The notes: a model not told the origin generated them from the sequence alone. 64,000 nucleotides of DNA from Candidatus Latescibacterota bacterium (GCA_965204745.1 OZ242010.1:3659767-3723766), one strand, 5' to 3'. Shown: positions 826-36,605, counted from the first letter of the stretch. Numbers and translations: made by a program.

Positions 826-1250
826 GGCGTTGTTGCATAAATAGCTATTGCCTGCAAGTTGGGATTGCAAAAAGACAAGCTCCTTCGTAGATTGGGCATA
901 TGGAGCACCGAAACCACTCACCCTTTCTCACCAGGAACCTGTCATGCCCAAGATAACCGCTTCCAAGACCGCCGTCAAGGCCCCTCGTCGCCCTCGTCGC
1001 CCGCGCTGTGCGCCTGTCTATCGGGTTCGGAACTGGCCGGCCTACGAGGCCGGTCTCAAGCAGCGGGGCAGTCTGACGTTTTGGATTACACCGCAAGCCC
1101 TTCGGGGGTGGTACCATCAAGGGCCAACGCAACGGGGGAGGCAAAACACCTTTTCAGATTTGGCTATTCAAACGGCACTGATGTTGCGCTTGGTCTCTGC
1201 CTTGCCCCTGCGTCAAACCGAGGGGTTTCTCACGTCCATCCTGGCGCGTG
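826..1250 (+). mobile_element. Truncated IS5-family copy (IR plus the first ~100 codons of the transposase)
   Basis: 826-960 is near-identical to the reverse complement of 31440-31581, the transposase-proximal end of the full IS. MPKITASK...LPLRQTEGFL matches the N-terminus of the 334-aa transposase at 30458..31462. The similarity ends around 1250. Confidence 0.65.
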
Positions 1251-1533: not shown

Positions 1534-2307
1534 ATGCAACTCACGACCGAACAAATCCGCGAATTTTACGAGCGCGGGTACGTCAAAATCCCCGGTGCCA
1601 TCTCGAAGGCGATGGTGGATACGGCGCGGCAGGCCGTCAACCATTCGATTGGCACGCTAGGGCCGAATGGCGAGGATATGTCCAAGCATCGCGCCGCGCA
1701 GTTTTGCCGCGACTTGAATGGCAGTCCCGTGATTATGGACCTGTTCAACAACAGCCCGGTCTGTTCCCTCGCCGAATCCCTGATGGGAGAGGGCAACTTG
1801 CAAAAGCCCATCCAAGGCGCGCAGGTGGCGCCGCGGTTTCCCAATGTCATCGGCAAAGACCCGGCCGAACCGCGGGGGCATCTCGACGGCATGGGCACGG
1901 GCATGAATGGCATGCCCAAAGGCGTGTACCGCCGCGATTTCACCTGTTTTGCCGTCATTTACCTGGCCGATGTGCCCGAGTCCTTTAGCGGCAATTTCAC
2001 GGTTTGGCCGGGGTCGCATCGCTTTTTTGAATCCTACTTCAAGCGCGAGGGGCTCGAAGTGCTCTCCGATGGTACGCCGCATGTGGCATTGCCCGAAGGT
2101 CCGGATATGATCACCGGCAACGCGGGCGATCTCGTTCTCGCACACCACCAGATGGTCCACAGCGCCGGCCCGAATGCGTCTCCCAATATTCGCTATGCGA
2201 CCATTGCCCGCCTCCGCCACGTCGATTGCACTGAAAACGGCAATCGGGGCTTCCTCGACATCTGGCGCGAATTTCCCCGAGTGCGCGAAGTGCTCGCAGC
2301 GGCATAA
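1534..2307 (+). CDS. Phytanoyl-CoA dioxygenase (PhyH) family Fe(II)/2-oxoglutarate oxygenase, paralogue 1
   Basis: RBS taaggagat then ATG at 1534. H-x-D facial-triad motif (PRGHLDG) and a distal His (HHQMVHSAGPN). 45-50% identity to the next gene. Confidence 0.8.
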   Translation: MQLTTEQIREFYERGYVKIPGAISKAMVDTARQAVNHSIGTLGPNGEDMSKHRAAQFCRDLNGSPVIMDLFNNSPVCSLAESLMGEGNLQKPIQGAQVAPRFPNVIGKDPAEPRGHLDGMGTGMNGMPKGVYRRDFTCFAVIYLADVPESFSGNFTVWPGSHRFFESYFKREGLEVLSDGTPHVALPEGPDMITGNAGDLVLAHHQMVHSAGPNASPNIRYATIARLRHVDCTENGNRGFLDIWREFPRVREVLAAA

Positions 2308-2374
2308 TACCAAAGGGATCAGGCGTTGCTTGTCTAAAGCGTTTGGTCCTTTGATGGCGTTGACCGAGGGGACC

Positions 2375-2696
2375 TATCCCCCGGCCCCTTTCCTACGAGG
2401 AAAGGGGAGTAAAGCTCCATTGATGGCTTCTCGCTCTGGTTGCTCTGATGGCGGTGCGCGAGGGCATAAAGCGATTAAAAACCCCTCACACCATCCCCTC
2501 GTAAAACCCATCCGCGTTCCCCCCTTCCTCGCAGGAAGGGGGGTTAGGGGGGTAGGTCCCGATAGGGCATAAAGCGATTAAAAATCCCTCACACCATCCC
2601 CTCGCAAAACCCATCCGCGTTCCCCCCTTCCTCAAAGGCACAGGCGTAGCCTACAACGAAGCGAAGCGAGTAACGGGGGTTAGGGGGCTGGGCGGT
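2375..2696. repeat. Intergenic composite of GC-rich hairpin modules, including a ~104-bp tandem duplication at 2464-2634
   Basis: Palindromes cccctttcctacgaggaaagggg and ccccccttcctcgcaggaagggggg. The gcataaagcgattaaaaa...gcgttcccccc unit occurs twice. The module gcacaggcgtagcctacaacgaagcgaagcgagtaacgggggttaggggg recurs at 8810, 14640, 21060 and 29840 (reverse). Confidence 0.55.
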
Positions 2697-2742
2697 CTGA
2701 CAACTGACAACTGACAACCGACAACCGACAACCGACAACTGA
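2697..2742. repeat. Heptamer array (CTGACAA/CCGACAA) x6-7
   Basis: ctgacaactgacaactgacaaccgacaaccgacaaccgacaactga. Confidence 0.85.
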
Positions 2743-2754
2743 TAGGAGTTCACC

Positions 2755-3531
2755 ATGTCCATTACCGATGCACAAAAACGCCAATTTGTCGAGGAAGGGT
2801 ATCTCAAAATCTCGGGGGCTGTGCCCAAGCACATGATCGAAACGGCGCGGCGCGCGGTCAATTATTCCATTGGCAATGTGGGCCTTGGCGGTGAAGACCT
2901 CGCAAATCACCGCTCGGGATTCTTTTGCGCCGAACTGTTGGACGCGCCGTTCATCATCGACATGTACAACGAGACGCCGGTGATGGAGATCGCCGAAGCC
3001 CTGATGGGCAAGGGCAATGTCCTGCCGGTTGCACGCGCCAAAACCTATCCGCGCTTCCCCATGCCACTCGGCGCAGAACCCTCGCCGCCGCGGGGCCATA
3101 TTGACGGCATTGGCAACGGCACCAATGGCACGGCCAAGGGCGATTACAAGCGCGGATTCACGGCGTTTGCCGTCGTCTATCTCGTGGATGTGCCCGAACC
3201 GTTCAGCGGCAATTTCACGGTTTGGCCCAAGTCCCATCGCTTTTTTGCGGACTATTTCAAAACGCACGGTCACGAAGTGCTCGCCCAAGGCATGCCTCGC
3301 CCCGATCTGCCCGAAGACCCGGTGATGATCACCGGCAACGCGGGCGATTTCATTCTCGCGCATCATCAGGTCGTTCACGGCTCGTGTCCCAACGCCTCGC
3401 CCAACGTGCGCTTGGCGACCATCTCTCGCCTCAAGCACAAAGATGCCGATCAAATCGGCAAGGATGCGTACACAGAGATATGGCGCGAATGGCCCGGTCT
3501 TCACGACGTGCTCAATGGAAAATCCGAGTGA
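2755..3531 (+). CDS. PhyH family Fe(II)/2OG oxygenase, paralogue 2
   Basis: aggag RBS. PRGHIDG and HHQVVHGSCPN motifs. Collinear similarity to paralogue 1. Confidence 0.8.
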   Translation: MSITDAQKRQFVEEGYLKISGAVPKHMIETARRAVNYSIGNVGLGGEDLANHRSGFFCAELLDAPFIIDMYNETPVMEIAEALMGKGNVLPVARAKTYPRFPMPLGAEPSPPRGHIDGIGNGTNGTAKGDYKRGFTAFAVVYLVDVPEPFSGNFTVWPKSHRFFADYFKTHGHEVLAQGMPRPDLPEDPVMITGNAGDFILAHHQVVHGSCPNASPNVRLATISRLKHKDADQIGKDAYTEIWREWPGLHDVLNGKSE

Positions 3532-3539
3532 GGTACCCC

Positions 3540-4328
3540 ATGCCTATCGCCATAACCGAAGCGCAGAAGCGGCAATACAGGGACGAGGGCTATTTTATCC
3601 TCGAATCCGTTATTCCCGATCACCACCTCGAACTCTTGCGCGGGGCATGCCAGACCTTTATCGACCAAATGCACGCACGCATGGATGAGCGAGGCACGGA
3701 TACCCTTGGCATCAACCATCGCAACAAACGCTACTTTGTCTCCAACTGCTTTCGCCAGCAACCGAGCCTTCGCGCCTTCCTTTTTAGCGATCTCATGGCC
3801 GCTATCTGCCGTGCGACCTTGGACGACAACGCCTATCTTTTTTGGGAACAGTATGTCGTCAAAGGCGCGGAAACCGGCATGAAATTTTCATGGCATCAGG
3901 ACTCTGGCTATGTGGGATATCCGGACCACAAACCCTATCTCACCTGCTGGTGCGCGTTAGATGATATGCGCGAAGAAAACGGCACGATTCACCTCTTGCC
4001 CTATTCGCGTAGCGGCATCCGATCTTGGGTACAACACATCGCGGAAGAAGGTAGCAACGACAAAGTCGGCTATTTTGGCGATGATCCCGGGCTGATTGTC
4101 GCAGTGCCCGCGGGCAGTATTGTCGCTTTCTCCAGTATCGTCTTTCACAGCAGCAGCACCAACACCACCCCAAATCTGAGACGCGCTTACCTCGGGCAAT
4201 ACTCCTGTGAACCCATCCTCTCGGCCGATGGCAACAAACTCTGGGGCAATGCCGAACCCTTCCTCCGCGATGGGCAATCCGCAGTCGGTGAACCGCCACC
4301 CGTCTTGTCACCGAGGCCGGATGAGTAA
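3540..4328 (+). CDS. PhyH family Fe(II)/2OG oxygenase, paralogue 3
   Basis: ATG at 3540, 9 nt after the previous stop. SWHQDSGY (H-x-D) and VFHSS. The ORF-track N-terminal extension from 3222 overlaps the upstream gene and is rejected. Confidence 0.75.
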   Translation: MPIAITEAQKRQYRDEGYFILESVIPDHHLELLRGACQTFIDQMHARMDERGTDTLGINHRNKRYFVSNCFRQQPSLRAFLFSDLMAAICRATLDDNAYLFWEQYVVKGAETGMKFSWHQDSGYVGYPDHKPYLTCWCALDDMREENGTIHLLPYSRSGIRSWVQHIAEEGSNDKVGYFGDDPGLIVAVPAGSIVAFSSIVFHSSSTNTTPNLRRAYLGQYSCEPILSADGNKLWGNAEPFLRDGQSAVGEPPPVLSPRPDE

Positions 4329-4359
4329 GACCAAATCGCCCTTTTTGGTATAACGCCAG

Positions 4360-5208
4360 TCAAGACCTCGGATGCCCCGCTTCCTCCATCAACCGCAACC
4401 AATCTCTGTGACTCGTTGCAACCCGCTCTGGATCGACCCGGCTTCGGGCGACAAAACCGGGCACCTGCTCGCGCCCGGTTGGCAATCTGTAATCGCTGTA
4501 TCGAATGTCCAGGCTCCAGCGGATGTGGTCGGCCTGGTTTGGAAATGAGCGATGGACGGTCTTGTGCTGAATCAGGGCCGCGCCCCCGGCTGGCAACGCG
4601 GACGAGACGCGCTCGCCCGGCGGCAACTCCGCTTCGGGAATTTCCAACTCGCCCCCCACTTTTTGGTGGAGAATAATCCCGTGCTTATGGCTTCCGGCCA
4701 AAATTTCCAGACAGCCATTTTCCACATGGGTAGGGACCAGCGGCACCCAAAAGTTGATCATAAACGTCTCTTCCACCTCTGGATCCAAAAACGCGATGTC
4801 CTGATGCCACGCCACTTCTGCTTCGCCGGGCATTTTTGCGCGGATGTTAAACTGCGGATGCACCAGGATTTCCGGGCCAATAATCGACTCGACCACGTTC
4901 AGGATGGCGGGATGGGTGAGCAAATAAAACAATCCCGCAGTCTTGTGGGCCTTGCCCAAAATCTCGCTGACAAACCGCTTGTCCGTTCCCATAGCCGCGC
5001 AGAGAAGTGCCAACCGCCGCTCAAATGGCGCGTCTGCAAACACCTCCCCCAACTGACCACGCGCCTGGGCCTCCCGCGCCCTGCGGTCAATCGCCGCATT
5101 AAACTCCTCCACCAACGGCTGATACGCTTCTGTGGGCAGGCATTCGCCCAGCAACAAATATCCTTCCGATTTGTAAAAAGCAATCTGCTCCTCCGTCAAA
5201 CCAGCCAT
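4360..5208 (-). CDS. PhyH family Fe(II)/2OG oxygenase, paralogue 4
   Basis: ATG at 5208 with a GGAGGAGGA RBS. MAGLTEEQIAFYKSEGYLLL... WHQDIAF (H-x-D) ... IQHKTVHRS. The 150-codon upstream extension in the track is low-complexity and rejected. Confidence 0.7.
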   Translation of the reverse strand: MAGLTEEQIAFYKSEGYLLLGECLPTEAYQPLVEEFNAAIDRRAREAQARGQLGEVFADAPFERRLALLCAAMGTDKRFVSEILGKAHKTAGLFYLLTHPAILNVVESIIGPEILVHPQFNIRAKMPGEAEVAWHQDIAFLDPEVEETFMINFWVPLVPTHVENGCLEILAGSHKHGIILHQKVGGELEIPEAELPPGERVSSALPAGGAALIQHKTVHRSFPNQADHIRWSLDIRYSDYRLPTGREQVPGFVARSRVDPERVATSHRDWLRLMEEAGHPRS

Positions 5209-5224
5209 TGTCCTCCTCCTGTTT

Positions 5225-6007
5225 TTATCTCGCCCGAAAATCCCTATCGCCTTTGAACGGCATGGTCTCGCCCGGAATATATCGCGGGCGCGGGGCGTAG
5301 GCATTTTTGACATCGGGATCGGCTTTGCCGCGTACGAGGATGTTTTCGTGGTTTTCTCTTTGAACCCATGTGGTCGTTGGAATATAGCGCAGGGTGAGGC
5401 CAACGCGCCATTGGTCGGATGTGTTGGCATTGGAGCCGTGGATGATATTGGGATTGTGGATCGAGACGTCGCCGGCCTGGAGTTCGAGATCGACCGCGTC
5501 TGAATCGTCGATCTGGTCCGGGCGAATGCCCACGCCGAGCACGTACTTTTCCGCGTCCAAGGCCATGAGTTCGCGGCGTTTGAGCAAGTGCTTGTTCTGC
5601 GTGCCGGGCAAGACGCGCATGCAACCATTTTCAATTGTCGATGCCGTGCCCGCAACCCAGAGGGTGGTCACTTCCATCGGCTCGAGGGGCCAGTAAGAAC
5701 CGTCTTGATGCCACTGCACGGCCCGACCATCGCCCGGGGGTTTGGCGATGTAATGCGCCGCAAATAGCGCGATGTCGGGGCCGAGGAATTGTTCGGCGAT
5801 ATCGACGAGGCGTTCATCCCCTACGAGCCGGTGCATGAATGGATCGTGCGCCAGCAGATGGTGATGCAGGTGTTCTGGACGCACGCCAGGGTTTCTTTCG
5901 ATCAACCAATGGACGTGCTGAACCGTTTCTGCGGCGAGCTCTGGATCGATGGCGTTCCGTGCGATCACATAGCCGCGTTGGTCGTAGTCGCGCCGTAAAT
6001 TTTTCAT
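5225..6007 (-). CDS. PhyH family Fe(II)/2OG oxygenase, paralogue 5
   Basis: WHQDGSYW and IHNPNIIHGS motifs. Its start overlaps the upstream sulfatase stop by 4 bp (ATGA). Confidence 0.75.
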   Translation of the reverse strand: MKNLRRDYDQRGYVIARNAIDPELAAETVQHVHWLIERNPGVRPEHLHHHLLAHDPFMHRLVGDERLVDIAEQFLGPDIALFAAHYIAKPPGDGRAVQWHQDGSYWPLEPMEVTTLWVAGTASTIENGCMRVLPGTQNKHLLKRRELMALDAEKYVLGVGIRPDQIDDSDAVDLELQAGDVSIHNPNIIHGSNANTSDQWRVGLTLRYIPTTTWVQRENHENILVRGKADPDVKNAYAPRPRYIPGETMPFKGDRDFRAR

Positions 6008-7494
6008 CGCGCACGCTCCTGTCGCGGTGTCGTGCGTTGGCTTGCTCGGATGTCGCGCAGCCGGTTCGCCATCTGCTCCGCGATAGCCGGATGGGCTGAC
6101 GCCACATTTTCGATCTGCCCGATGTCGCCCGACAAGTCGTAGAGTTGTGGGGCCGGCGCATTGCCGGTTTCGATGTTGACATTGGTATTCACGGGCGGGC
6201 CTTCATGTGGCGGAATGAAAACCCAGTCTCCCCGTCGCAAAACGGTTTTTGCCTGTATGCCTTCCAAGACGATCTCGGCGCGGCCCGCATCGCTTTGCCC
6301 CAACAGCGCGTCGAGCACATTCGCGCTGTCGGGCCCCGCGTCAGAATCGAGCGAAACGCCGGCCAGCGCGGCAAAAGAGGCGAGGAAATCGACCTGACTG
6401 ACCAGCGCTTGGGATGCGCCGGGGTTGACCCTGCCGGGCCAAGACAAGATGAAGGGCACGCGAGTGCCGCCGTCATACATGCTGTATTTGCCGCCGCGCA
6501 ATGGGCCTGCGGGACGGTGATCCCCGCAGCGTTCAACGGCTTGGTCGTAGTACCCGTCGTTGAGCACCGGGCCGTTGTCGCTGGAGAAGATCACTATCGT
6601 GTTTTCTTTGAGCCCATGCCGGTCGAGCGCGTCGAGCATTTCGCCGACGCACCAGTCCATTTCGGCGATGGTATCGCCGCGCGGCCCCAGTGTCGTGCTG
6701 CCCACAAACCGGGGATGGGGCAGGCGCGGGACATGGGGTTGGTGGAAAGCGTAGTACAAGAAGAAGGGGTTGTTTTTGTTTTGTTCGACGAATGATAGGG
6801 CTTTTCCCAAAAAGACGTCGGCCATTTCTTCATCGACCCAAAGGGCTGCGTCGCCGCCTTTCATGTAGCCGATGCGGCTCACCCCATTGACGATGCTCAT
6901 GTCGTGCCCATGGTGGTATTTCATTTTGAGCAATTCGGGATTGTCCTTCCCGGTGGGCAGGCCGGGAAAGGGCTTGTTTCTGTTGTACTCGACTTCGATG
7001 GGATCGGCTGGATCCAGACCGACGACATCCCTGCCGTCGAGGTACACGCAGGGCACGCGGTCATTGGTTGCGGCCATGATGAAAGACGAGTCAAATCCAA
7101 TGTCGAGCGGGGTTCCGGGAAGGGGCGCGTTCCAATTTTGATTGCCCGCGCCAATGCCGAGGTGCCATTTGCCCACAACGCCGGTTGCGTAGCCGGCCCG
7201 TTTGAGCATCGAAGGCAAGGTGCAGGTATCGGGGTCGATGATGAGGGGCGCGTCGCCGGGCAAGATGTGGGCGCGTTCATCGCGCCAGGAATAAGACCCG
7301 GTGAGCAAGCTGTAGCGCGAGGGAGTACACGTCGCGGCAGTGGCATACCCGTTGTGGAACATCACGCCCTCGGCTACGAGGCGGTCGATGTTGGGCGTGT
7401 CGAGTGCGGTGGCGCCGTAACAGCTCACGTCGCCAAAGCCGAGGTCGTCGGCGTACATGACGATGATATTGGGGTGTTGCGTGGAATCGGCCAT
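6004..7494 (-). CDS. Sulfatase (Cys-type arylsulfatase family)
   Basis: C-T-P-S-R formylglycine signature (ATCTPSRYSLLTG). The N-terminus MADSTQHPNIIVMYADDLGFGD has no signal peptide. Start 7494 chosen at the conserved N-terminus. Confidence 0.8.
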   Translation of the reverse strand: MADSTQHPNIIVMYADDLGFGDVSCYGATALDTPNIDRLVAEGVMFHNGYATAATCTPSRYSLLTGSYSWRDERAHILPGDAPLIIDPDTCTLPSMLKRAGYATGVVGKWHLGIGAGNQNWNAPLPGTPLDIGFDSSFIMAATNDRVPCVYLDGRDVVGLDPADPIEVEYNRNKPFPGLPTGKDNPELLKMKYHHGHDMSIVNGVSRIGYMKGGDAALWVDEEMADVFLGKALSFVEQNKNNPFFLYYAFHQPHVPRLPHPRFVGSTTLGPRGDTIAEMDWCVGEMLDALDRHGLKENTIVIFSSDNGPVLNDGYYDQAVERCGDHRPAGPLRGGKYSMYDGGTRVPFILSWPGRVNPGASQALVSQVDFLASFAALAGVSLDSDAGPDSANVLDALLGQSDAGRAEIVLEGIQAKTVLRRGDWVFIPPHEGPPVNTNVNIETGNAPAPQLYDLSGDIGQIENVASAHPAIAEQMANRLRDIRASQRTTPRQERAR

Positions 7495-7602
7495 AGGGTA
7501 TCCTTTCTCATAATGGGACGGGCAATATAGGGCGTCGTCCAACTGGCAAGCAAGCAGAAAGACGCATGCGCGTTTGGCAGAAGAAATGAAACAAAAACAG
7601 CA

Positions 7603-7703
7603 TTCTGACGTAAAAGGCGATGAGATGGCACCTTGCGTCTTGCCTCTTGCCTCTCACCTCTTGCCTCTTGCCTCGTTCTGACGTAAAAGGCGATGAGATG
7701 GCA
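7603..7703. repeat. 28-bp direct repeats (tctgacgtaaaaggcgatgagatggcac) flanking a CCTCTTG/CCTCTCA heptamer insert
   Basis: Exact duplication at 7603-7630 and 7676-7703, with 45 bp of cttgcctcttgcctctcacctcttgcctcttgcc between them, directly upstream of the RBS of the 7726 gene. Confidence 0.6.
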
Positions 7704-7725
7704 CATTCACACAAAGGAGGGAACG

Positions 7726-8511
7726 ATGATGCGATTGGCAGTTGTTGCGGCGTTGTTGAGTTGGGCGGCCCAAAACGCCGCGGCGGAAACCCATCCGGCG
7801 GCAGAGGGCTTTGATCAGGCGGGATCCGATGCCGAGGCCATCGAGATCGCGGACGCGGTGATGGCAAAAATGGGCGGGTGGAAAAATTGGGATCAGACGC
7901 GGTACCTTACGTGGCGTTTTTTTGGCCGGCGTCTGCACGTCTGGGACAAGTGGACGGGCGATCTGCGGCACGAGGATGGGGACAGGCTCGTTTTGATGAA
8001 TCTCGGGACGAAAACGGGCCGCGTGTGGTTTGGCGGCACAGAGGTGACACAGGCGGATTCCGTGAGAAAATACGTGAATCAGGGGTACAGGCGGTGGATC
8101 AATGATTCGTATTGGCTGGTGATGCCCTACAAGTTGAAGGATTCGGGCGTGACCTTAAAATACAGCGGCGAGGATGAAACGCAGGATGGCCGCCCCGCGC
8201 ATAAATTGACCCTGACATTTGCGGATGTGGGCGTCACGCCGCAAAACAAATACGATGTGTGGGTGGATAAAGAGCGCAATCTGGTGACGGAGTGGGCTTT
8301 TTATCCCAAAGCATTAGACGTGGAACCCCGCTTCCGCAATCCGTGGACGAATTGGACAAAGCACGGCAATATCCTGCTTTCGGATGGCCGCGGGTCCACG
8401 CGCAGAGGCGAACGCAAGCATTCGGATATCGCGGTTTTCGACGCGCTGCCAGCATCGGTATTTGAAAGCCCGGATCCCGTGGATCTGATGGCGTTGAAAA
8501 ATCGACAGTAG
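7726..8511 (+). CDS. Hypothetical secreted protein
   Basis: AAGGAGG RBS then ATGATG. Signal peptide MMRLAVVAALLSWAAQNAAA. No recognisable family. Confidence 0.6.
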   Translation: MMRLAVVAALLSWAAQNAAAETHPAAEGFDQAGSDAEAIEIADAVMAKMGGWKNWDQTRYLTWRFFGRRLHVWDKWTGDLRHEDGDRLVLMNLGTKTGRVWFGGTEVTQADSVRKYVNQGYRRWINDSYWLVMPYKLKDSGVTLKYSGEDETQDGRPAHKLTLTFADVGVTPQNKYDVWVDKERNLVTEWAFYPKALDVEPRFRNPWTNWTKHGNILLSDGRGSTRRGERKHSDIAVFDALPASVFESPDPVDLMALKNRQ

Positions 8512-8894
8512 GCGGTCCGTGCAACGTTGCCCTTCCGCGCCGCCGTGTCTGAATCGCGGATTAAACGGATTAGGGGATTGCGCGGATTACCACCCACCGC
8601 CCTACCGCCATAGACCTATCCCCCCGGCCCCCGTTATTCGCTTCGCTCATTGTAGGCTACGCCTGTGCCTACAAGGAAAGGGGGAGCGCATGGCTTTTTG
8701 AAGGTTTATATCCCTGTCTGTTTTGATGGCTTTGCGCGAATGGATCACGCCATAGAAACCCAAACCCCTCTCGCGTAAATCTCTCGCAAGACCCATCGCC
8801 ATTCCCCCTTGTATCTTCCTCGCAGGCACAGGCGTAGCCTACAACGAAGCGTAGCGAGTAACGGGGATTAGGGGGGTAAGTCCCGATTTGTGCA

Positions 8895-10283
8895 TCAATA
8901 CCCCTTTGCCAGGTCCGCTCGGCTTTGGGCTTCGGCGGCTTCGGGGTCGCGTCTCAATTCTTTGGTCAAGAGGGCGTGTAGGTGTGCGATGCGCTCTGCC
9001 TGCGCGGGGTCCGCGGCGAGGTTGTCGAACTCCCCCGGATCAGCTGCGAGATGGTACAGTTCGCGTTCCGGGCCGTGGTCCGCGTCGAAGCGCGTGTGGT
9101 ACACGTATTTCCATGGCCCTTGCCGGATCATCGCCATGCCCGACGCGATGTTGTGACCGTAGTATTCGCTGATGGCAATGTCGCGCCAACCGCTGGTCTC
9201 GTCGTCCAAATAATTGAGCAGGGACGCGCCATCCCAATCGTCTGAGGATTCCGCGCCGCCGATCTCGGCGATAGTTCGCGCCAGATCGACCAGTGAACAC
9301 GTGCCTGCCCGTCGTTGTCCGCCGGCCCAGCGTTTTGGGTAGGATGCGATGAGGGGCATCCGCGCTGCGTGTTCGTACAGGTTGTTTTTCCACCACAAGC
9401 CGTGGTCGCCCTTGTTCTCGCCGTGGTCCGAGCAGTAAATGACGATGGTGTCGTCCGATACGGCTGATTCGCCGAGCGCGTCGAGCAACTTGCCGATCTC
9501 GTCGTCCAACCAGTTCACAAAGCCCCAGTAGAGTTCGCGGCCCAATTTCGTCTGCGCGGCCGTGGCCTTTGTCACCCCAAATCCGGCCCGCAGATGTTTG
9601 TAATTGGTCGGCAAGGTGTCCAAGAACCCGTCGGGGATCTCGGGCATGGGCACTTTGTCTTTGTAGGGCGCGTGATACGCCTCGGGGATGGTCAAGGGAA
9701 AGTGCGGCGCGAGGTAGCCAGCCAGCAAGAAGAAGGGTTTGTCATCGGCGTTGCGATTTCGCAAAAACGCGCTGCACTCCGCCGTTACTTTGCGATCTTT
9801 TTCCAGGATGGGCGACGTATCGCCGGTTTTGAACGCGGCTACCCGGCCTTCCCAACCGCGACTCGATTCCGACAGGTCGTCGTACGCCCGCCGCCCGCCC
9901 TTGCCGGATTTTTGCCCTTGGTTCGCGCCGGGATACACATCCCGAAAACCATAGCGGTGCGCGCTGGCAAAGTGCATTTTGCCGCCGAGCCAGCATTCGT
10001 AGCCGGCCGCGTTCAAGGCGTGGGGCAACGAGGGATACTCGTCTGTGGGCAGTTGGCAATCATTCGTCCACACCCCGCACCGGCTCACGTATTGCGCTGC
10101 TGTGAAACTCGCCCGCGCAGGCGCGCAAAGCGGCGAACTCGTGTACGCCGCGTCAAAGACGATGCCCCTTTCTGCCAACCCATCCAAATGCGGCGTTCGC
10201 ACAATGGGATCGCCATAACACCCCATCACCCCCGGGTCGTGTTCATCGGACATGATCATCAAAATATTCGGTCGGTCAGCCAT
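8895..10283 (-). CDS. Sulfatase family protein
   Basis: SPLCAPARASF (C-x-P/A-x-R). N-terminus MADRPNILMIMSDEHD without a signal peptide. AAGGAGA RBS before ATG 10283; the longer track ORF is rejected. Confidence 0.8.
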   Translation of the reverse strand: MADRPNILMIMSDEHDPGVMGCYGDPIVRTPHLDGLAERGIVFDAAYTSSPLCAPARASFTAAQYVSRCGVWTNDCQLPTDEYPSLPHALNAAGYECWLGGKMHFASAHRYGFRDVYPGANQGQKSGKGGRRAYDDLSESSRGWEGRVAAFKTGDTSPILEKDRKVTAECSAFLRNRNADDKPFFLLAGYLAPHFPLTIPEAYHAPYKDKVPMPEIPDGFLDTLPTNYKHLRAGFGVTKATAAQTKLGRELYWGFVNWLDDEIGKLLDALGESAVSDDTIVIYCSDHGENKGDHGLWWKNNLYEHAARMPLIASYPKRWAGGQRRAGTCSLVDLARTIAEIGGAESSDDWDGASLLNYLDDETSGWRDIAISEYYGHNIASGMAMIRQGPWKYVYHTRFDADHGPERELYHLAADPGEFDNLAADPAQAERIAHLHALLTKELRRDPEAAEAQSRADLAKGY

Positions 10284-10990: not shown

Positions 10991-11349
10991 TTTATCGGTC
11001 ACTCCGATCAACGGCCGAGCACGGGGGCATGGAAAAAAAAGGTGAGAGGTGAGAGGCAAGACGGGAGAAGACCTACACTCACTGCTCGCCTTTGGACTGG
11101 CTGTCGCTAGTTGTACCCCGCTCGTGGCTAAACTTGCCTCTTGCCTCTTGCCTCTTGCCTTTTTAGGCGAGCACGGGGCGTCGCCCCTACACATATCGCT
11201 CACCTTTGAACTGGCTATCGCCAGTTGTACCCCGCTCGTGCCTTTTGCGCCTTTTGTGGCTAATCGCCTTTTGTGGCTCACTTCAGGTTGGGTGGGCGGG
11301 TGTGGACTGACCACTGACTACTGACCACTGACTACTGCCTCTTCCCTTT

Positions 11350-14488: not shown

Positions 14489-14719
14489 AATGCGAATTAA
14501 GAGTAGAAAACGAGTAAGAAGCAAGCCGCGGCCAATCGCCCAAAGACCTCAACGAGTCATCCATTATAGAATCGCCCCTTAGAACTTGTCTGAAAACAAA
14601 CGATGCCCTCTCCTCCGGCTCCTCCCCGCAACGCAGAGACGTTATTCCCCCCTTCCTCGCAGGCACAGGCGTAGCCTACAACGAAGCGTAGCGAGTAACG
14701 GGGGTTAGGGGGGTAGGTC
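14489..14719. mobile_element. Truncated copy of MITE family B (TIR aatgcgaattaagag), next to a (CAGTAGT)x3 array
   Basis: Collinear with the reverse complement of 29781-30054 and with 18942-19269. Only the left TIR is present; the hairpin module A forms the right end. Confidence 0.5.
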
Positions 14720-15695: not shown

Positions 15696-17045
15696 TTATC
15701 CCGATCCGCCCTTCGCCTCTGCAATCTCGAGCAGGGCATTGGTTTTGACGACATGCCCGATCAAATCGTGCTCGGTGGCGTCGGTGATCTCGACGTCGAC
15801 GAAATCGCCGATTTGGGCGGGGCCGGTGAAGAACACGCCGCCGTCGATCTCGGGCGCGTCCATGCGCGTGCGGCCCACATAGTGATATGCCGGATCGTCC
15901 GACACCTCGTCCACCAACACCTTGAACGTGCGCCCAATGTGCGCGGCGTTCAAGTCGCCTGAGATGCACGCCTGCAATGCCATGATGTCGTTTAGCCGCT
16001 CGCGCTTGACTTCATCGGGCACGTCATCGGTCAAGTGACTCGCCCGCGTGCCATCCTCGTGCGAATAGGTGAACCCCACGAGGCGATTGAATTGCATTTC
16101 ATCGACAAAATCCATCAATTCCGCGACGTGTTCATCGCGCTCCCCCGGAAATCCCGCGATGATCGACGACCGAAGCGTCAAATTCGGGATGCGAGCGCGC
16201 AAGGCGTGGATCAACTTGCGGATGCCCGCTTGCGTGGTGCTGCGGTTCATCGCCTTCAAAATGGGGTCGGATGCGTGCTGAATGGGCAAGTCGATGTACC
16301 CGCACAATTTCTCTTCCCTCGCCAACAGGTCGATCAACTCATCGCGCCAACCCGTTGGATACGCGTACAGCAGGCGCACCCAATCGAGGCCATCGATCTC
16401 GACCAACGCCTTCAGCAAATCCGTCAATCGGGGCTTGCCGTACACATCCGCGCCATAGCGCATGGTATCCTGCGCGACGAGGGCGATTTCGCGCACCCCT
16501 TGTGCCACCAAGCGATGGGCTTCGGCCACCAAGCGATAGAGGTCTTCGCTCTCGTTCTGCCCGCGAAAACTGGGAATGGCGCAAAACGCACACGCCCGGT
16601 CGCAGCCATCCGAGATCCGCAAATACGCCCAGTGCTTCGGGGTGAGCAAGTGCCGGGACTCCGCGTCTCGAATCGTCTGAATGCGCGACGTGCCCAGCAA
16701 GTGATCGCAATGCGCCACGATGTCGCGCTCTCCCGCAAGGCCCACGATCATGTCCGCCTCCACGAGTTCGGCTTCCAATTCCGTGCGGTATCGCTCGGCC
16801 AAACAACCGGTGACGATCACCCCGCGGCACCTGCCCTCGTCCTTGTACTCGGCGGCGTCCATCACTGCGGCAATGGATTCTTCCTTAGCCGAGTCGATGA
16901 ACCCGCAGGTATTGACGACAATGACATCGGCGTCTTCGGCATCGTCCGACAGGTCGTACCCATTCAGCGCGAGGAGGCGGTGCATGCGCTCGGAATCCAC
17001 CGTGTTTTTCGGACAGCCCAGGGTGATGAGGTTAATCGTCGGCAT
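15696..17045 (-). CDS. rimO: Ribosomal protein S12 methylthiotransferase
   Basis: Radical-SAM CAFCAIP motif, an N-terminal MTTase domain (INLITLGCPKN) and a C-terminal TRAM domain. Confidence 0.85.
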   Translation of the reverse strand: MPTINLITLGCPKNTVDSERMHRLLALNGYDLSDDAEDADVIVVNTCGFIDSAKEESIAAVMDAAEYKDEGRCRGVIVTGCLAERYRTELEAELVEADMIVGLAGERDIVAHCDHLLGTSRIQTIRDAESRHLLTPKHWAYLRISDGCDRACAFCAIPSFRGQNESEDLYRLVAEAHRLVAQGVREIALVAQDTMRYGADVYGKPRLTDLLKALVEIDGLDWVRLLYAYPTGWRDELIDLLAREEKLCGYIDLPIQHASDPILKAMNRSTTQAGIRKLIHALRARIPNLTLRSSIIAGFPGERDEHVAELMDFVDEMQFNRLVGFTYSHEDGTRASHLTDDVPDEVKRERLNDIMALQACISGDLNAAHIGRTFKVLVDEVSDDPAYHYVGRTRMDAPEIDGGVFFTGPAQIGDFVDVEITDATEHDLIGHVVKTNALLEIAEAKGGSG

Positions 17046-17059
17046 AAAAACCACCTGTG

Positions 17060-18730: not shown

Positions 18731-18846
18731 ATGAAAGGCGTGAGACGTGAGACGTGAGACGTGAGATGAAAGGCGTGAGACGTGAGATGAAAGGCGTGAG
18801 ACGTGAGACGTGAGACGTGAAATGAAAGGCGTGAGACGTGAGATGA
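18731..18846. repeat. Tandem array of GTGAGAC heptamers interleaved with the 14-mer gtgagatgaaaggc
   Basis: gtgagacgtgagacgtgagacgtgagatgaaaggcgtgagacgtgagatgaaaggc... The minus-strand ORFs here (SRLTPFISRLT...) are translation artefacts of the repeat. Confidence 0.85.
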
Positions 18847-18941: not shown

Positions 18942-19269
18942 CGAATAAAGCGTTGCATCCATTTATTGGGACCTACCCCCCTGGCCCCCCTTCCTCACAG
19001 AAAGGGGGGAATGGCGAGAGGTTGTGCGAGGGGTTTGGGTTTCTAGGGCGTGATCTATTCGCTCAAAGCCATCAGAACAGCTAGGGAGACAAACCTTCAA
19101 AAAGCCATGCGCTCCCCCTTTCCTTGTAGGAAAGGGGGCCGGGGGGATAGGTCCTACGAGAAAGGGGAAGAACATCTCTCGTTGCGGAGATGCGCCGGAT
19201 GACTCGTCCATGTCTTTGGGCGATTGGTCTCGGCTTGCTTCCTACTCGCTTTCTACTCTTTATTCGCAT
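18942..19269. mobile_element. MITE family B copy (TIRs aatgcgaataaag / ctttattcgcatt), embedded between CTGACAA arrays
   Basis: Both TIRs are present. The interior holds hairpin modules (ccccccttcctcacagaaagggggg; cccctttccttgtaggaaaggggg) shared with 29781-30054. Confidence 0.55.
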
Positions 19270-20780: not shown

Positions 20781-21242
20781 CTAGGTCGTGTTGACATTTT
20801 ATTTTTTTAGGTCACGCACAGATTAGCAAATGTGTTGCTTGCTCATTTAATGCGTTTCCTTTGATGGCTTCTATCTCTGGTTGCTCTGATGGCGGTGCGC
20901 GTGGGGACTATCCCCCGGCCCCTTTCCTACGAGGAAAGGGGAGTAAAGTGCCTTTGATGGCTTCTCGCTCTGGGTTGCTCTGATGGCGGTGCGCGAGGGC
21001 ATAAAGCGATTAAATATCCCTCATCAATCCCCTCGCAAAACCGCTCACAGTTCCCCCTTCCTCACAGGCACAGGCGTAGCCTACAACGAAGCGAAGCGAG
21101 TAACGGGGGTTAGGGGGGTAGGTCCCGATAAGGAGCGACTGTTCCAGTTTCTCAAATCGAGAGCATATCCTGAGATAGGGCTTGATTTTCTCGATAAACC
21201 GCTCAAGCCGGTGCATGGCTCGTAAATGTCAACATAACCTAG
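20781..21242. mobile_element. MITE family A copy (~460 bp) with 19-bp terminal inverted repeats ctaggtYRtgttgacattt
   Basis: Left end ctaggtcgtgttgacattt (20781-20799); right end the reverse complement of ctaggttatgttgacattt (21224-21242). The interior contains hairpin modules A/B. The 80-aa ORF 20983..21225 is probably not coding. Confidence 0.55.
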
Positions 21243-21740: not shown

Positions 21741-22184
21741 ATGTACCTCCTTTTCTTAATCGTGCTTTTGGGGATGGGATGCGAGGGACAGGACGCGACC
21801 TATCTCACCATCAAAAACCCACGGGTGCGCGAGAACATTCCACCGCAGAGGATCACGGCGGCGTATGTGTCGATCCACAATCGCGGGCCGGCAACCGCGC
21901 TCATCTCTGCATCCACGCCCGCGGCTGAGGTCGCAGAAATCCATGTGATGACCACCGATGGCAATATGATGCGGATGAAAAAAATCAACCGGTTGCCCAT
22001 CCCGGCACGCGGCTCGGCAACCCTACAACCCGGCGGCAATCACCTCATGCTCATCGGCCTCAAGCGCGACCTGACACCGGGCGATTCCCTCGCCCTCACC
22101 CTCACCTTCGCAAATGACCACGTACAGACGGTCTGGGCACACATCCTTTCAACTTCACAGATAAACGCAGATGGACACAGATAG
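21741..22184 (+). CDS. Copper chaperone PCu(A)C (DUF461)
   Basis: Lipoprotein N-terminus. H-x-M ... M-x-M pattern (IHVMTTDGNMMRM) typical of PCuAC. Adjacent to SCO1. Confidence 0.7.
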   Translation: MYLLFLIVLLGMGCEGQDATYLTIKNPRVRENIPPQRITAAYVSIHNRGPATALISASTPAAEVAEIHVMTTDGNMMRMKKINRLPIPARGSATLQPGGNHLMLIGLKRDLTPGDSLALTLTFANDHVQTVWAHILSTSQINADGHR

Positions 22185-22204
22185 AATGCAAAAAATCAAA
22201 GTAT

Positions 22205-22530
22205 TATTTTTTTCGCACCTGTCAGGGCAACGATGGATCGGTCAACACACCCGTCAGGGCAACGATGGATCGGTCAACGCACCCGGCGGCGTGGGGATAG
22301 GTTGGAAACGCACAAGGCGGCGCAGAGGTAGGTTGGGCACGCACATGGCGGCGCGGTGGCGAGGTTGGGCACGTACAAGGCGGCGTGGTGGCAGGACAGG
22401 GAACGCACAAGGCGGCGTGGTGGCAGGACAGGGAACGCACAAGGCGGCGTGGCGGCGAGGCGGGGAACGCACAAGGCGGCGAGGCGGCAGGACAGGGAAC
22501 GCACAAGGCGGCGAGGCGGCGAGGCGGGGC
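22205..22530. repeat. ~32-bp minisatellite, ~10 degenerate tandem copies (gcacaaggcggcgtggtggcaggacagggaac)
   Basis: Units share the gcacaaggcggcg core and diverge gradually. The region is stop-free in all six frames. Repeats are contiguous with no spacers, so this is not CRISPR. Confidence 0.7.
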
Positions 22531-23112
22531 CTGCTCTTTACACTCTGCACCCTACACTTGTTTTTAGTCGCCTGTCAACCCCTTGAACGCACGCCGCAAG
22601 TCGATTCCGATCTCGCGCTTTCCGCTGAACCGTATGCTTTTGGGGGCGATTTTACGCTGATCGATCACGATGGCAATGCCTTCCGCTTGGCGGAGCAACA
22701 GCGTCCGTTTTTCCTCTTTTTGGGCTATGCGAGTTGTCCGGATGCCTGCCCGCAAACGCTGGCGCGTCTCGCCCGCGTGTACGCGCTTTTGGGCGAGGAG
22801 GCACGCGATCTCGGCACGCTTTTTGTCAGCGTGGATGCCGAACGCGATTCGCCCGCTGTGCTCAAAACCTATTTGTCGCACTTTGACGTGCCCGCCATTG
22901 GCCTGACCGGGGCGCAGGATAGTATTGACGCGGTGGTCAAACGCTATGCTGCCCACTATGAAATCAACGATCAGGCATCCGCCGCGGGGTATCTCATCGA
23001 CCATTCGCTCTACATCTACCTCATCGATCAACACGGCGATTCGCGCTTCTTCTTTCGCCCCTCGCATACCGCCGAAGAAATCGCCACCGTCGCCCGACAG
23101 TTGTTTCGCTAA
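22531..23112 (+). CDS. SCO1/SenC family copper chaperone (thioredoxin-like); 5' boundary uncertain
   Basis: C-x-x-x-C-P motif (ASCPDACP). Lipoprotein-like LLFTLCTLHLFLVAC. The only in-frame starts are CTG at 22531 or an ATG deep inside the minisatellite. Confidence 0.6.
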   Translation: MLFTLCTLHLFLVACQPLERTPQVDSDLALSAEPYAFGGDFTLIDHDGNAFRLAEQQRPFFLFLGYASCPDACPQTLARLARVYALLGEEARDLGTLFVSVDAERDSPAVLKTYLSHFDVPAIGLTGAQDSIDAVVKRYAAHYEINDQASAAGYLIDHSLYIYLIDQHGDSRFFFRPSHTAEEIATVARQLFR

Positions 23113-23147: not shown

Positions 23148-23360
23148 TTGATTACCGTCCATTTACCTTCTGAAATCGAGCAACGCATTGCGGACCTCGC
23201 CGCTCGAACTGGCCGTACCGAGACATTCTACATTGAGGAAGCCATCATGGAATACTTGGATGAACTGGAAGATAAATACTTGGCATTAAATCGCTTGGAG
23301 AATCCCACCAAACGCTGGACATTGGATGAAATGGAGCAAGGCATTGACAGTTGCGTTTGA
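23148..23360 (+). CDS. RelB/DinJ-family ribbon-helix-helix antitoxin-like protein
   Basis: TTG start with AAAGGAG RBS. N-terminal RHH (ITVHLPSEIEQRIADLAARTG) and a C-terminus RLENPTKRWTLDEME similar to RelB RLRNPKPVRVTLDEL. No RelE-like gene follows; instead it overlaps the methyltransferase gene by 35 bp. Confidence 0.6.
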   Translation: MITVHLPSEIEQRIADLAARTGRTETFYIEEAIMEYLDELEDKYLALNRLENPTKRWTLDEMEQGIDSCV

Positions 23361-24471
23361 CAACCGCGCTGTGCCGCCCACAGAGGGGATCAAGTATGCG
23401 GGGTCTAAGTTGAAGCTCCTTCCGCATATCTTGCAACTGGCCGCAAAGGTCGGGGCGAAGACGGTGTTGGATGGGTTCTCGGGGACGACAAGGGTGTCGC
23501 AGGCACTCGCCAGATCGGGGTATGCGGTCGTCTGCAACGATATTGCCGCGTGGTCTGAAATTTTTGGGATGTGCTATTTGCTCAATCAAAAGAAGCGGTC
23601 GGATTACCAACCGCTCATCGATCACCTCAATGCCGTGCGGCCCGTGGATGGATGGTTCACGCAACACTATGGCGGATATCCCAACGAGGGTTGCGCGATT
23701 CAGCGCGATGGGCGCAAGCGGCCATGGCAGATTCACAACACCCGAAAGCTGGATGCGATTCGGGAGGAGATCGAGGCCCTCGCGCTCGATCCCGTCGATA
23801 AGGCCGTGGCACTGACGAGCCTAATTTTGGCACTCGACCGCGTGGATAGTAGCCTCGGGCACTTTGTCTCGTATCTCAAAGACTGGTCCCCGCGCTCCTA
23901 CAAAAAACTCGAACTCAAAGTGCCATCTGTCTTTCCGTCCTCTGGGGAACATCGCGTGTTCCGAAAGGACATTTTTGACCTCGCGCCGCGCATCGACACG
24001 GACTTGGCGTATTTCGATCCGCCGTATGGATCGAACAATGAGAAAATGCCGCCATCGCGCGTGCGCTATGCGTCTTATTACCACGTCTGGACGAGCGTCA
24101 TTCTCTACGATAAACCCGCCCTTTTCGGCAGGGCCAATCGCCGCGTTGATACGTCTGACCCGGTGGCGGCATCCGCGTTTGAGGAGTTCAGACGCAACGC
24201 AAATGGTCGCTTCATCGCGGTCGAAGCCATTGAGAAACTCATCGCTACGACGCGAGCGCGCCATGTCATCTTGTCGTACAGTTCTGGAGGCAGGGCAACA
24301 GCCAAAGCGTTGAACGACGCGATGCAATGTCACGGCAGGCTTTTGGATGTGGTCGCGATCAATTATCAGAAAAACGTGATGGCGGGCATGACGTGGACGC
24401 ACGAATGGCTACGAGAGGTCGATCACCCAAACCGAGAGTTCTTGTTCTTGCTCGAAAAGCAACGTGCTTGA
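23326..24471 (+). CDS. Dam-like (D12 class, alpha-group) N6-adenine DNA methyltransferase, orphan
   Basis: IKYAGSK (SAM-binding region, cf. Dam FLKWAGGKY), FSGTT, and the DPPY catalytic motif (AYFDPPYG). Start either ATG 23326, overlapping relB, or GTG 23369. Confidence 0.8.
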   Translation: MKWSKALTVAFDNRAVPPTEGIKYAGSKLKLLPHILQLAAKVGAKTVLDGFSGTTRVSQALARSGYAVVCNDIAAWSEIFGMCYLLNQKKRSDYQPLIDHLNAVRPVDGWFTQHYGGYPNEGCAIQRDGRKRPWQIHNTRKLDAIREEIEALALDPVDKAVALTSLILALDRVDSSLGHFVSYLKDWSPRSYKKLELKVPSVFPSSGEHRVFRKDIFDLAPRIDTDLAYFDPPYGSNNEKMPPSRVRYASYYHVWTSVILYDKPALFGRANRRVDTSDPVAASAFEEFRRNANGRFIAVEAIEKLIATTRARHVILSYSSGGRATAKALNDAMQCHGRLLDVVAINYQKNVMAGMTWTHEWLREVDHPNREFLFLLEKQRA

Positions 24472-24521
24472 AGGAACGAAGTCAGTAAAAGCGCGAAAGG
24501 GAAAACCACCGATGGGCGTAC

Positions 24522-24677
24522 GAGGACAGGTACAGGGGCCTGTCCCCGCGCACCACCTGGCCCAACCCAACCGAATACGACGCCCGCGCCGCGCACTTGG
24601 CTCGGCTATTTAAGGAAAATTTCGCGCAATTTGAAACCGGCGTCTCGGATAAAATCCTCCGCGCAGGGCCTGTGTGA
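24522..24677 (+). pseudogene. pckA: 3' remnant (~50 codons) of ATP-dependent phosphoenolpyruvate carboxykinase
   Basis: YEDRYRGLSPRTTWPNPTEYDARAAHLARLFKENFAQFETGVSDKILRAGPV* matches the conserved PckA C-terminus (...PRNTW..P.EY...A..LA.LF..NF.K.....G..I..AGP). There is no upstream body; the methyltransferase stop lies 50 bp upstream. Confidence 0.55.
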
Positions 24678-24765
24678 TACCAAATATTGGAACACCTCAA
24701 CCCGTTTTCAGAGGGGAATTTCGGCATGGTTGCAAATGAAACAAAAGTCATCTTGAGAAAGAGAT

Positions 24766-25746
24766 ATGATTGAACGATACTCAAACGCCATTATTCAAGG
24801 CGATTGTTTAGAATTGCTAAAAACAATGCCCGATAACTCGGTAGATGTCGCGTTTGCGGACCCACCCTTTAACCTCAAAAAATCCTACAATAGCTACAAA
24901 GATCGCCGAAAACTCCGAGAATATTTGGACTGGTGCGAACTTTGGATAACCGAAATGGTTCGCATTGCCAAACCAACGGGCAGTATTTTTGTCCACAACA
25001 TACCGAAATGGCTCACATTTTATACGGCGTATCTGAATAAAATTGCCGATTTCAAGCACTGGATAAGTTGGGACGCGCCGACCGCACCAATGGGAAAAAC
25101 CCTGCAACCCTCGCATTATGGGATTTTATTTTACGCCAAAGACATCGAACAATTGAAATTTTATGAAATTCGTTATCCGCACAAACGCACGCGAAAAGAA
25201 GGGCTATTGGCAAAAGATTACGGCGGCAAAAAAAGACTCTTACACCCATTCGGCCCTCTCGTGTCCGATGTGTGGACGGATATTCACAGGGTCAAGCACA
25301 ATAAATACAGAGACAAACACCCCTGCCAGTTGCCCATACATTTATTGGAACGCATCATTTTAATGTCCTCAGATGAGGGCGATATCATTCTCGATCCCTT
25401 TAGTGGCACGGGCACAACGGCGTTGGCTGCCAAGCGTTTGGGCAGAAATTTCATCGGTTTTGAATTGGACGACAAATACGTTGAAATAACGCAAAATAAA
25501 CTTTTGCAAGAGAAGATGAGCTCGAAATTGGGTCGCTGTTGGGTCAGTTTTTATCTGGATAAATTGGTCACCTTAAGAGACGAAGATTGGAATGACATAA
25601 AAGAATTTTTCCACATTCCATCTCAAATTGAAAAGATAGATCTCATGCCGATTGTCTTAAAATCAAACGCGGCGAGTTCCATATCTTCCGAAAAAAATGG
25701 GAATAATCGCAAAGACGCGCTCCAAGAAGAACTCACATTGTCTTAG
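24766..25746 (+). CDS. Beta-class DNA methyltransferase (N4-cytosine or N6-adenine), low-GC, orphan
   Basis: DPPF catalytic motif (FADPPFN) precedes the FSGTGTT SAM motif, which is the beta-class order. Markedly AT-rich relative to the flanks. C-terminal ~70-aa extension of unknown function. Confidence 0.8.
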   Translation: MIERYSNAIIQGDCLELLKTMPDNSVDVAFADPPFNLKKSYNSYKDRRKLREYLDWCELWITEMVRIAKPTGSIFVHNIPKWLTFYTAYLNKIADFKHWISWDAPTAPMGKTLQPSHYGILFYAKDIEQLKFYEIRYPHKRTRKEGLLAKDYGGKKRLLHPFGPLVSDVWTDIHRVKHNKYRDKHPCQLPIHLLERIILMSSDEGDIILDPFSGTGTTALAAKRLGRNFIGFELDDKYVEITQNKLLQEKMSSKLGRCWVSFYLDKLVTLRDEDWNDIKEFFHIPSQIEKIDLMPIVLKSNAASSISSEKNGNNRKDALQEELTLS

Positions 25747-25793
25747 CGCGCGACTAGACGCCCCCCGCTGACCGCTTGGAGGCTTGGGATTAA

Positions 25794-25892
25794 CTGACAA
25801 CTGACAACTGACAACTGACAACTGACAACTGACAACTGACAACTGACAACTGACAACTGACAACTGACAACTGACAACTGACAACTGACAAC
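25794..25892. repeat. (CTGACAA)x14 perfect heptamer tandem array
   Basis: 99 bp of uninterrupted ctgacaa at the right edge of the methyltransferase islet, upstream of lgt. Confidence 0.95.
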
Positions 25893-25980
25893 TTGAGAGG
25901 AACAGCGCGGTGGCCTTCTCCCGTCTCCCCTCTTGCCTCTTGCCTCTCCCGTCTTCCCTCTACCCTCTTCCCTTCACCTC

Positions 25981-30134: not shown

Positions 30135-30173
30135 GACTGACTACTGACTACTGACTACTGACTACTGACTACT
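30135..30173. repeat. (CTGACTA)x5 heptamer array
   Basis: gggactgactactgactactgactactgactactgactacttgg. Confidence 0.9.
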
Positions 30174-36578: not shown

Positions 36579-36605
36579 TGCGCTTGCAAAAAAAGGATTT
36601 TGCCG

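Follow-up and report, generated by a model that had tools for sequence, protein, structure and literature searches.

A conserved gene cluster of Candidatus Latescibacterota in which a signal-less S1_15-type sulfatase is encoded together with PhyH-family oxygenases

The gene cluster described here lies at positions 1534-10283 of a 64,000-nucleotide stretch of a Candidatus Latescibacterota genome (GCA_965204745.1, OZ242010.1:3659767-3723766), the whole of which is called the window below, and it comprises five genes for PhyH-family dioxygenases (P1 to P5), two genes for Cys-type sulfatases (S1 and S2) and one gene for a secreted protein (H). We tentatively read S1, P5 and P4 as a cytoplasmic operon that might act on an imported sulfated metabolite, a possibility that falls somewhat short of probable. 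S1 and P5/P4 may share one pathway. The convergent sets of PhyH and sulfatase genes noticed in an initial annotation of this DNA are largely real, and the interpretation given to them there is partly supported. The features of the cluster are as follows.

1534-2307, plus strand: P1, a divergent PhyH-fold Fe(II)/2-oxoglutarate (2OG) oxygenase of 257 amino acids (aa)
2755-3531, plus strand: P2, a paralogue of P1, 258 aa
3540-4328, plus strand: P3, a PhyH-family oxygenase, 262 aa
5208-4360, minus strand: P4, a PhyH-family oxygenase, 282 aa, the final gene of the putative S1-P5-P4 operon
6007-5225, minus strand: P5, a PhyH-family oxygenase, 260 aa, widely conserved and translationally coupled to S1
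7494-6004, minus strand: S1, a signal-less Cys-type sulfatase of S1_15 type (predicted galactose/N-acetylgalactosamine (Gal/GalNAc)-6-O-sulfatase), 496 aa
7726-8511, plus strand: H, a secreted, DUF6503-like protein, the third invariant member of the core
10283-8895, minus strand: S2, a signal-less Cys-type sulfatase of 462 aa with a distant likeness to choline sulfatase, a neighbour in this genome only
2308-2754, intergenic: the P1-P2 spacer, with dispersed intergenic repeats and a (CTGACAA)x6.6 heptamer array at 2697-2742
7495-7725, intergenic: the divergent S1/H region, with a heptamer array (7632-7674) within a 32-bp direct duplication (7603-7634 and 7676-7707)
826-1243, plus strand: a truncated copy of an IS5-like transposase gene, which marks the left breakpoint of the cluster

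The coordinates and strands initially given for the five PhyH genes and the two sulfatase genes all match the listing of open reading frames (ORFs), in which plausible Shine-Dalgarno-like sites stand upstream of each of the seven. The ATGA-overlapped junction was verified as well: the stop codon of S1 overlaps the start codon of P5 by 4 bp, and P5 and P4 are separated by 16 bp, so S1-P5-P4 are almost certainly expressed as a single transcript, judging from this spacing. The description of P1, P2 and P3 as three tandem PhyH genes holds for their positions and strand (P2 and P3 are 8 bp apart), but P1 is split from P2 by 447 bp filled with dispersed repeats and a heptamer array, and therefore the three probably do not form one tight operon. 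P3 and P4 are convergent, with stop codons 31 bp apart. A scan for promoters and terminators gave no more sites than were found in shuffled sequence.

The genomic sequences that match most closely are complete chromosomes of Candidatus Latescibacterota, and in one of them (L004) P5 is 95% identical. The H-S1-P5 trio is present and co-linear in all 16 related Latescibacterota loci, down to about 77% nucleotide identity. Some of these 16 genomes lack P4 and some lack P3-P2-P1, S2 is found in none of the 16 loci, and insertions occur at the convergent junction in related loci. The view of S2 and P1-P3 as partners of S1 is therefore not upheld. Moreover, the P1/P2/P3 module occurs without sulfatases in the marine metagenome contigs L099 and L100. 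A homology search with S1 returned members of the same clade only (at least 85% identity), so that it provides no independent test of synteny.

S1 reaches 191.9 bits with the Pfam Sulfatase model (PF00884, cut-off 25 bits) and carries the formylglycine motif CTPSR at residue 56, the cysteine of which lies in the peptide ATAATCTPSRYSLLTG. Its eight best matches in the PDB are all of S1_15 type (E values from 1e-147 to 1e-175), whereas the next family reaches only 1e-49; the entry 7ozc (2.4e-175) stands on top together with 6s20 and entries named S1_15 by their depositors. The S1_15 enzymes of Bacteroides thetaiotaomicron (7OZC, 7OZE, 6S20 and 9BAS/9BAU, of which 6S20 is titled 'N-acetylgalactosamine-6-O-sulfatase' and 9BAS/9BAU 'S1_15A/B') align with S1 end to end at about 55-60% identity with E values of 1e-164 to 1e-175. 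The catalytic and metal-binding segments DDLGFGD, GKWHLG, SSDNGP and RGGKYS are conserved between S1 and these enzymes, and S1 does not differ from 7OZC in the DD, K/H, DN and K segments. S1 is of S1_15 type, and Gal/GalNAc-6-sulfate is its predicted substrate class because of the roughly 60% identity to characterised enzymes. There are two differences: S1 begins at the catalytic domain and has no signal peptide, whereas the Bacteroides chains align from residue ~24-33 on, and S1 is encoded in an operon with PhyH oxygenases, whereas the context of the Bacteroides enzymes is a polysaccharide utilisation locus. An exact-protein look-up of S1 returned no record.

S2 scores 151.7 bits with the same Pfam model, also matches SGSH_C, and has the motif CAPAR at residue 53. 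Both sulfatases thus possess the formylglycine motif that was first reported as CxPSR/CxAxR, and the form 'CxAxR' was a misreading, as both motifs are CxPxR. The best solved relative of S2 is the choline sulfatase BetC (6FNY, 6G5Z and 7PTH), which aligns over the full length with an E value of 5e-49 (4.8e-49 for 6fny) and is like S2 in having a CxPxR motif and no canonical signal peptide. As a candidate BetC, S2 was rejected: it reaches 269.3 bits with TIGR03417 against an equivalog cut-off of 433.45 and is therefore not regarded as a BetC orthologue, and no betaine genes adjoin it.

The two sulfatases were correctly described as lacking secretion signals, since neither has a hydrophobic N-terminus, even when the longest possible ORF is included, in a test in which two secreted control proteins of the window were clearly positive; all seven enzymes are predicted by this N-terminus test to be cytoplasmic, as had been supposed. 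The signal-less state was also considered as a special trait of PhyH-linked sulfatases and rejected: nearly all sulfatases in about 1.9 Mb of related loci lack a signal peptide, and the trait therefore marks the lineages and not the cluster. In agreement with the initial annotation, no gene for a formylglycine-generating enzyme (FGE) or an anaerobic sulfatase-maturating enzyme (anSME) was found in the window by Pfam scans of about 48 ORFs, by a motif scan or by tblastn with two FGE-domain seeds (none with E<1), and the sole radical S-adenosylmethionine motif (CxxxCxxC) in the window belongs to a RimO/MiaB-like ORF (15696-17054). This absence carries little weight because the window is a 64-kb sample of a genome of about 5-6 Mb. 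The FGE gene is normally located elsewhere in the genome, and its absence beside the cluster is not special. Furthermore, FGE-like ORFs lie within about 5 kb of P5 in the loci L047 and L043, so an FGE is not lacking throughout this group of organisms.

Protein H has a signal-peptide-like N-terminus and no match in Pfam or the PDB. Among its 1129 representative homologues a weak match to DUF6503 was obtained in one, and the fusion partners of its remote homologues are miscellaneous and uninformative. In the region between H and S1, the 32-mer that is duplicated in the window is single-copy in L001, L002 and L004, which have no heptamer array there, and L007 and L016 have insertions immediately upstream of S1, namely other octamer arrays and a hairpin element; the S1/H promoter region is a hot spot for small repeat insertions.

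Among the oxygenases, P1 (32.4 bits), P3 (76.5), P4 (79.7) and P5 (111.6) all exceed the gathering cut-off of the Pfam PhyH model (PF05721, 22 bits), and P2, which at 20.9 bits is slightly under it, is nevertheless 56% identical to P1. The HxD...H facial triad is kept in all five proteins, as the initial annotation had stated, and is accompanied by a downstream, 2OG-binding Arg (H116, D118, H209 and R220 in P1 numbering); these residues are likewise invariant across the P1-family and P5-family alignments. The mutual identity was put at about 35-50%, and this does not agree with the measured values, which are 56% for P1/P2 and 21-27% over partial alignments for the remaining pairs. The proposed old duplication and diversification of five paralogues also fails, in that P1 and P2 alone are close and P2, P3 and P5 have outside relatives at 71-78% identity. 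The nearest relative of P2 (71%) is found in a Caldilineaceae locus, an orthologue of P3 (73%) in the marine contig L100, and orthologues of P5 (64-78%) in Latescibacterota, Gemmatimonadota, Chloroflexota, Phycisphaerae, Spirochaetia and Marinimicrobia; P1 has homologues in Poribacteria and Chloroflexota (57-63%), with 63% for the best outside match. Since P1, P2, P3 and P5 are closer to outside relatives, the set of five is an assembly of old PhyH subfamilies and not a local duplication series, only P1/P2 being duplication-like.

The AlphaFold2 models of P5 and P1 (pLDDT 92 and 84.7, respectively) show the double-stranded beta-helix fold of PhyH type. The fold matches of the P1 model are GriE, SnoK, EctD and PhyH, those of the P5 model are headed by ThoJ and SyrB2, and the TM-scores of the two models against ThoJ, SyrB2, PhyH, GriE and EctD range from 0.55 to 0.75. 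The nearest PDB entries are EvdO2 and SnoK for P3 and ThoJ (6zyk, 1.2e-16) for P4. ThoJ (6ZYK/6ZYL), an Fe/2OG enzyme that beta-hydroxylates a dimethyl-His residue of thioholgamide, a peptide made by the ribosome and modified after translation (RiPP), is the best match of P5 and P4 in both sequence and fold, SyrB2 being second, and it shares with them the PhyH-type double-stranded beta-helix and the metal triad; however, it is only 22-26% identical to them, and there is no RiPP gene context in this cluster. SyrB2 is a halogenase of the HxA/G type, whereas P5 keeps HxD and would therefore be of hydroxylase type. Several specific identities were tried and rejected: EctD (TIGR02408) has a top score of 35 bits, for P5, against a cut-off of 336.5; the SyrB2-type halogenase (TIGR01762) has a top score of 65 bits against 226, and the Asp is retained in all five proteins; and the scores for the PhnY-type (methylphosphonate hydroxylase) and PtlH-type enzymes are far under the curated cut-offs. 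No match of P1-P5 to TauD was found at E<=0.01, and PhyH alone was matched.

Considering these data together, we propose that the core unit consists of a clade-conserved S1-P5-P4 operon and the divergently transcribed gene for the secreted protein H. S1 would be a cytoplasmic, formylglycine-dependent enzyme, the active-site Cys of which is presumably matured by an enzyme encoded outside the window, and it could hydrolyse the 6-O-sulfate ester of a sugar or small glycan of Gal/GalNAc-6-sulfate type that the cell has imported. The part of P5 and P4 would be a hydroxylation, with O2 and 2OG, of a C-H bond in the same metabolite, in its desulfated product or in a precursor; aerobic markers in the window (SCO1, cytochrome c' and a di-haem peroxidase) are consistent with O2-dependent enzymes. 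P1-P2-P3 would represent a separate, convergent PhyH module of the kind found elsewhere without sulfatases, S2 an incidental lineage-specific neighbour, and the cluster as a whole a local sample of genome-wide expansions of PhyH enzymes and signal-less sulfatases.

The pathway of desulfation plus hydroxylation that was put forward in the initial annotation agrees with the invariance of S1-P5 in the 16 loci and with the recurrence of such pairs elsewhere, but the joining of the two steps is only inferred, and chance adjacency is a serious rival. According to the latter explanation, which is nearly as likely as the reading that we prefer, the enzymes are not functionally coupled: members of two massively expanded families have come to lie side by side by chance, each enzyme has an unrelated substrate, and S1-P5 persists in the clade by descent, since an overlap of 4 bp is not easily lost. 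In the distal flanks of P5 loci there are about 27 PhyH and 16 sulfatase genes per Mb, from which a chance adjacency of about 3% per locus is expected. Among 59 loci this density predicts about 2 in which P5 stands next to a sulfatase, and 9 were observed. In about 12 Chloroflexota loci the P5 orthologue is followed directly by a different signal-less sulfatase. In L092-L094 (8001-13100), which represent one metagenomic lineage, a P1 homologue (63% identity) overlaps an S2-like signal-less sulfatase (37% identity) by ATGA, and this sulfatase is followed by a second signal-less sulfatase and then by an EamA/DMT transporter; this is the clearest PhyH-sulfatase-transporter operon seen. Both Chloroflexota and one metagenomic lineage thus have operonic PhyH-sulfatase pairs of independent origin. 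Three independent operonic pairs, two of them with an ATGA overlap, argue against chance, as do the invariance of S1-P5 while the PhyH neighbours come and go and the FGE-sulfatase-domain ORF (9385-10207) that adjoins the eight-gene PhyH array in L100.

On the other side, several results weigh against the cytoplasmic operon that we prefer. At most loci with a P5 orthologue no sulfatase gene adjoins it, and the contexts are heterogeneous; in the profile scan of metagenomic P1-family loci sulfatase adjacency was found in 0 of 43. The cases of adjacency reduce to about 3 evolutionary events among dozens of lineages, which at these gene densities is not far from chance. Pfam scans revealed no transporter, regulator or sugar-catabolic genes in the cluster, and no characterised PhyH enzyme is nearer than about 26% identity, because of which no substrate is assignable to the PhyH enzymes. 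In favour of chance it can further be said that S2 is not conserved beside the cluster and that PhyH arrays of up to eight genes exist without sulfatases: the contigs L099 (97-7019) and L100 (2-10207) have 7-8 tandem PhyH genes, which include a P1/P2-like pair and the 73% orthologue of P3, and among which there are aldo-keto reductase-like ORFs, one of them (in L099) confirmed by Pfam. Outside the clade, the neighbourhoods of P5 contain two-component regulators, cupins, peptidase M14 and AP_endonuc_2, with no common pathway. In addition, among the Pfam domains of the related Poribacteria PhyH ranks first in abundance, an expansion of unknown function (Kamke et al. 2014, PMC3909097). These bacteria resemble the present organism in being uncultured, in their overlapping habitats and in their many diverse PhyH genes, including homologues of P1; they differ in that the paper reports no sulfatase linkage, whereas here one PhyH gene is translationally coupled to a sulfatase gene, a pairing that is met again in two other lineages.

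Two further explanations give the oxygenases a more specific role. The cluster might be a set for scavenging sulfate esters comparable to the ats genes of Pseudomonas, in which S1 and S2 would act hydrolytically and at least one PhyH enzyme oxygenolytically on sulfate esters or sulfonates; we think this unlikely, and equally so the chemistry that it entails, in which the ester carbon is hydroxylated and the product collapses to an aldehyde and sulfate, as with AtsK and TauD. In Pseudomonas the cytoplasmic Cys-type arylsulfatase AtsA is encoded together with the Fe/2OG oxygenase AtsK, which in P. putida is a 2OG-dependent alkylsulfatase whose gene lies near atsA, and the co-location of cytoplasmic Cys-type sulfatases with Fe/2OG oxygenases in the window is a likeness to this arrangement. 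However, AtsK is a member of the TauD family, and the ats locus has an ABC transporter and sulfur-starvation control, neither of which is seen in the cluster. The explanation is weakened because the oxygenases are of PhyH and not of TauD type, P1-P5 matching PhyH (PF05721) only and not the TauD/TfdA family of AtsK; moreover, no sulfate-ester or sulfonate transporter and no sulfur-starvation regulator was found nearby in the Pfam scans, and S1 is of the carbohydrate-directed S1_15 type and not of an aryl- or alkylsulfatase type. The other explanation, which is highly improbable, makes P5-type PhyH oxygenases the dedicated partners of cytoplasmic sulfatases and, in its boldest form, Fe/2OG-dependent FGEs: P5 would mature its partner sulfatase by hydroxylating the C-beta of the CxPxR Cys to a thiohemiacetal, from which loss of H2S would yield formylglycine. 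It is in line with the translational coupling of P5 to S1, with the unusual conservation of P5 orthologues (64-78% across phyla), which are nearly single-copy and occur in sulfatase-rich lineages, with the different sulfatase subfamily that adjoins P5 in Chloroflexota, and with a window that has neither FGE nor anSME. In addition, the nearest solved relatives of P5 act on peptide- or protein-bound residues, namely a RiPP His in the case of ThoJ and a carrier-protein-bound Thr in the case of SyrB2. Against this stand the remoteness of most P5 orthologues from sulfatases, the FGE-like ORFs near P5 in L047 and L043, with another in the P1-family locus L100, and the low identity to ThoJ, and the absence of FGE from 64 kb is uninformative on the genome. 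If it were true, P5 would provide a third, Fe/2OG-dependent route beside FGE and anSME, and the partnership of P5 with sulfatases might account for part of the enigmatic PhyH expansions of uncultured phyla that are rich in sulfatases.

The cluster is mostly ordinary for its lineage because both the PhyH and the sulfatase families are hugely expanded in these bacteria; all its parts belong to known families, and the lineage is already known for its richness in sulfatases. In literature searches that combined PhyH or phytanoyl-CoA dioxygenase with sulfatase, no microbial study linking them came up, and the recurrent operonic pairing of the two is absent from the literature searched, while the component families are already known. 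The surroundings of these Latescibacterota, Gemmatimonadota and Chloroflexota loci are dense in PhyH genes, almost none of which has a known substrate. A coupled pair with a predictable substrate class of the sulfatase (S1_15) is a concrete, testable handle on these orphan enzymes. If the coupling is real, it would indicate that the use of sulfated glycans or metabolites includes an oxidative step in the cytoplasm; otherwise, the cluster shows how readily two expanded families yield suggestive 'operons'.

At the left edge of the cluster, the truncated IS5-like copy beside P1 is recognised by a DDE_Tnp_1_5 match at aa 71-132 of the ORF 848-1483, and an insertion sequence (IS) end is located at 826, beside an ACTGACA array. 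The adjoining nucleotides 1242-1441 correspond to the start of a spermine-synthase-like gene that flanks P1 in L001 and L002. This edge is an IS-mediated breakpoint, with the truncated transposase gene abutting a 200-bp spermine-synthase-like remnant. A second IS5-like element (30405-31580, with DDE_Tnp_1_5 and DDE_Tnp_1 matches and the terminal inverted repeats GGCGTTGTTGCATAAAT) is situated precisely within an array of ACTGACA heptamers, of which 7 copies lie to one side of it and 8 to the other. Since both copies adjoin or sit in ACTGACA arrays, this suggests that the element targets heptamer repeats.

Perfect or near-perfect intergenic heptanucleotide arrays of up to 17.7 copies are spread over the whole window, with units including ACTGACA, CTTGCCT/GCAAGAG, GTGAGAC and AGTAGTC, and we take them to resemble the heptamer STRR (short tandemly repeated repetitive) sequences of cyanobacteria. 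The intergenic sequence also contains a family of dispersed repeats, which are about 70-190 bp long, are 77-97% identical to one another and have copies in L002 as well. The positions of arrays and repeats in the window are as follows.

803-825, 2697-2742, 7632-7674, 11133-11160, 18739-18843, 25792-25893, 30136-30173, 30354-30404, 31581-31640, 41586-41781, 42618-42745 and 56385-56508: heptamer arrays
2349-2687, 8613-8887, 14645-14719, 18964-19154, 20857-21133, 29825-29900 and 61537-61710: dispersed repeats

Another tandem repeat (22216-22529; about 8 copies, 32-bp period and 96-bp super-period) falls in the 5' part of a SCO1/SenC-family ORF (22171-23112). Defence-type genes occur at 23326-25746 and 36600-40304, coding for two DNA methyltransferases (D12 class and N6_N4), a GmrSD-type restriction endonuclease and an AAA_15/AAA_21 ATPase, and the GC content of the segment at 24-26 kb is low (0.48). 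Finally, a probable iron-uptake cluster extends from 47454 to 56057 and contains genes for ferritin, PepSY_TM, a TonB-dependent receptor with CarboxypepD_reg, a di-haem oxidoreductase (DHOR), imelysin and a porin-like protein.

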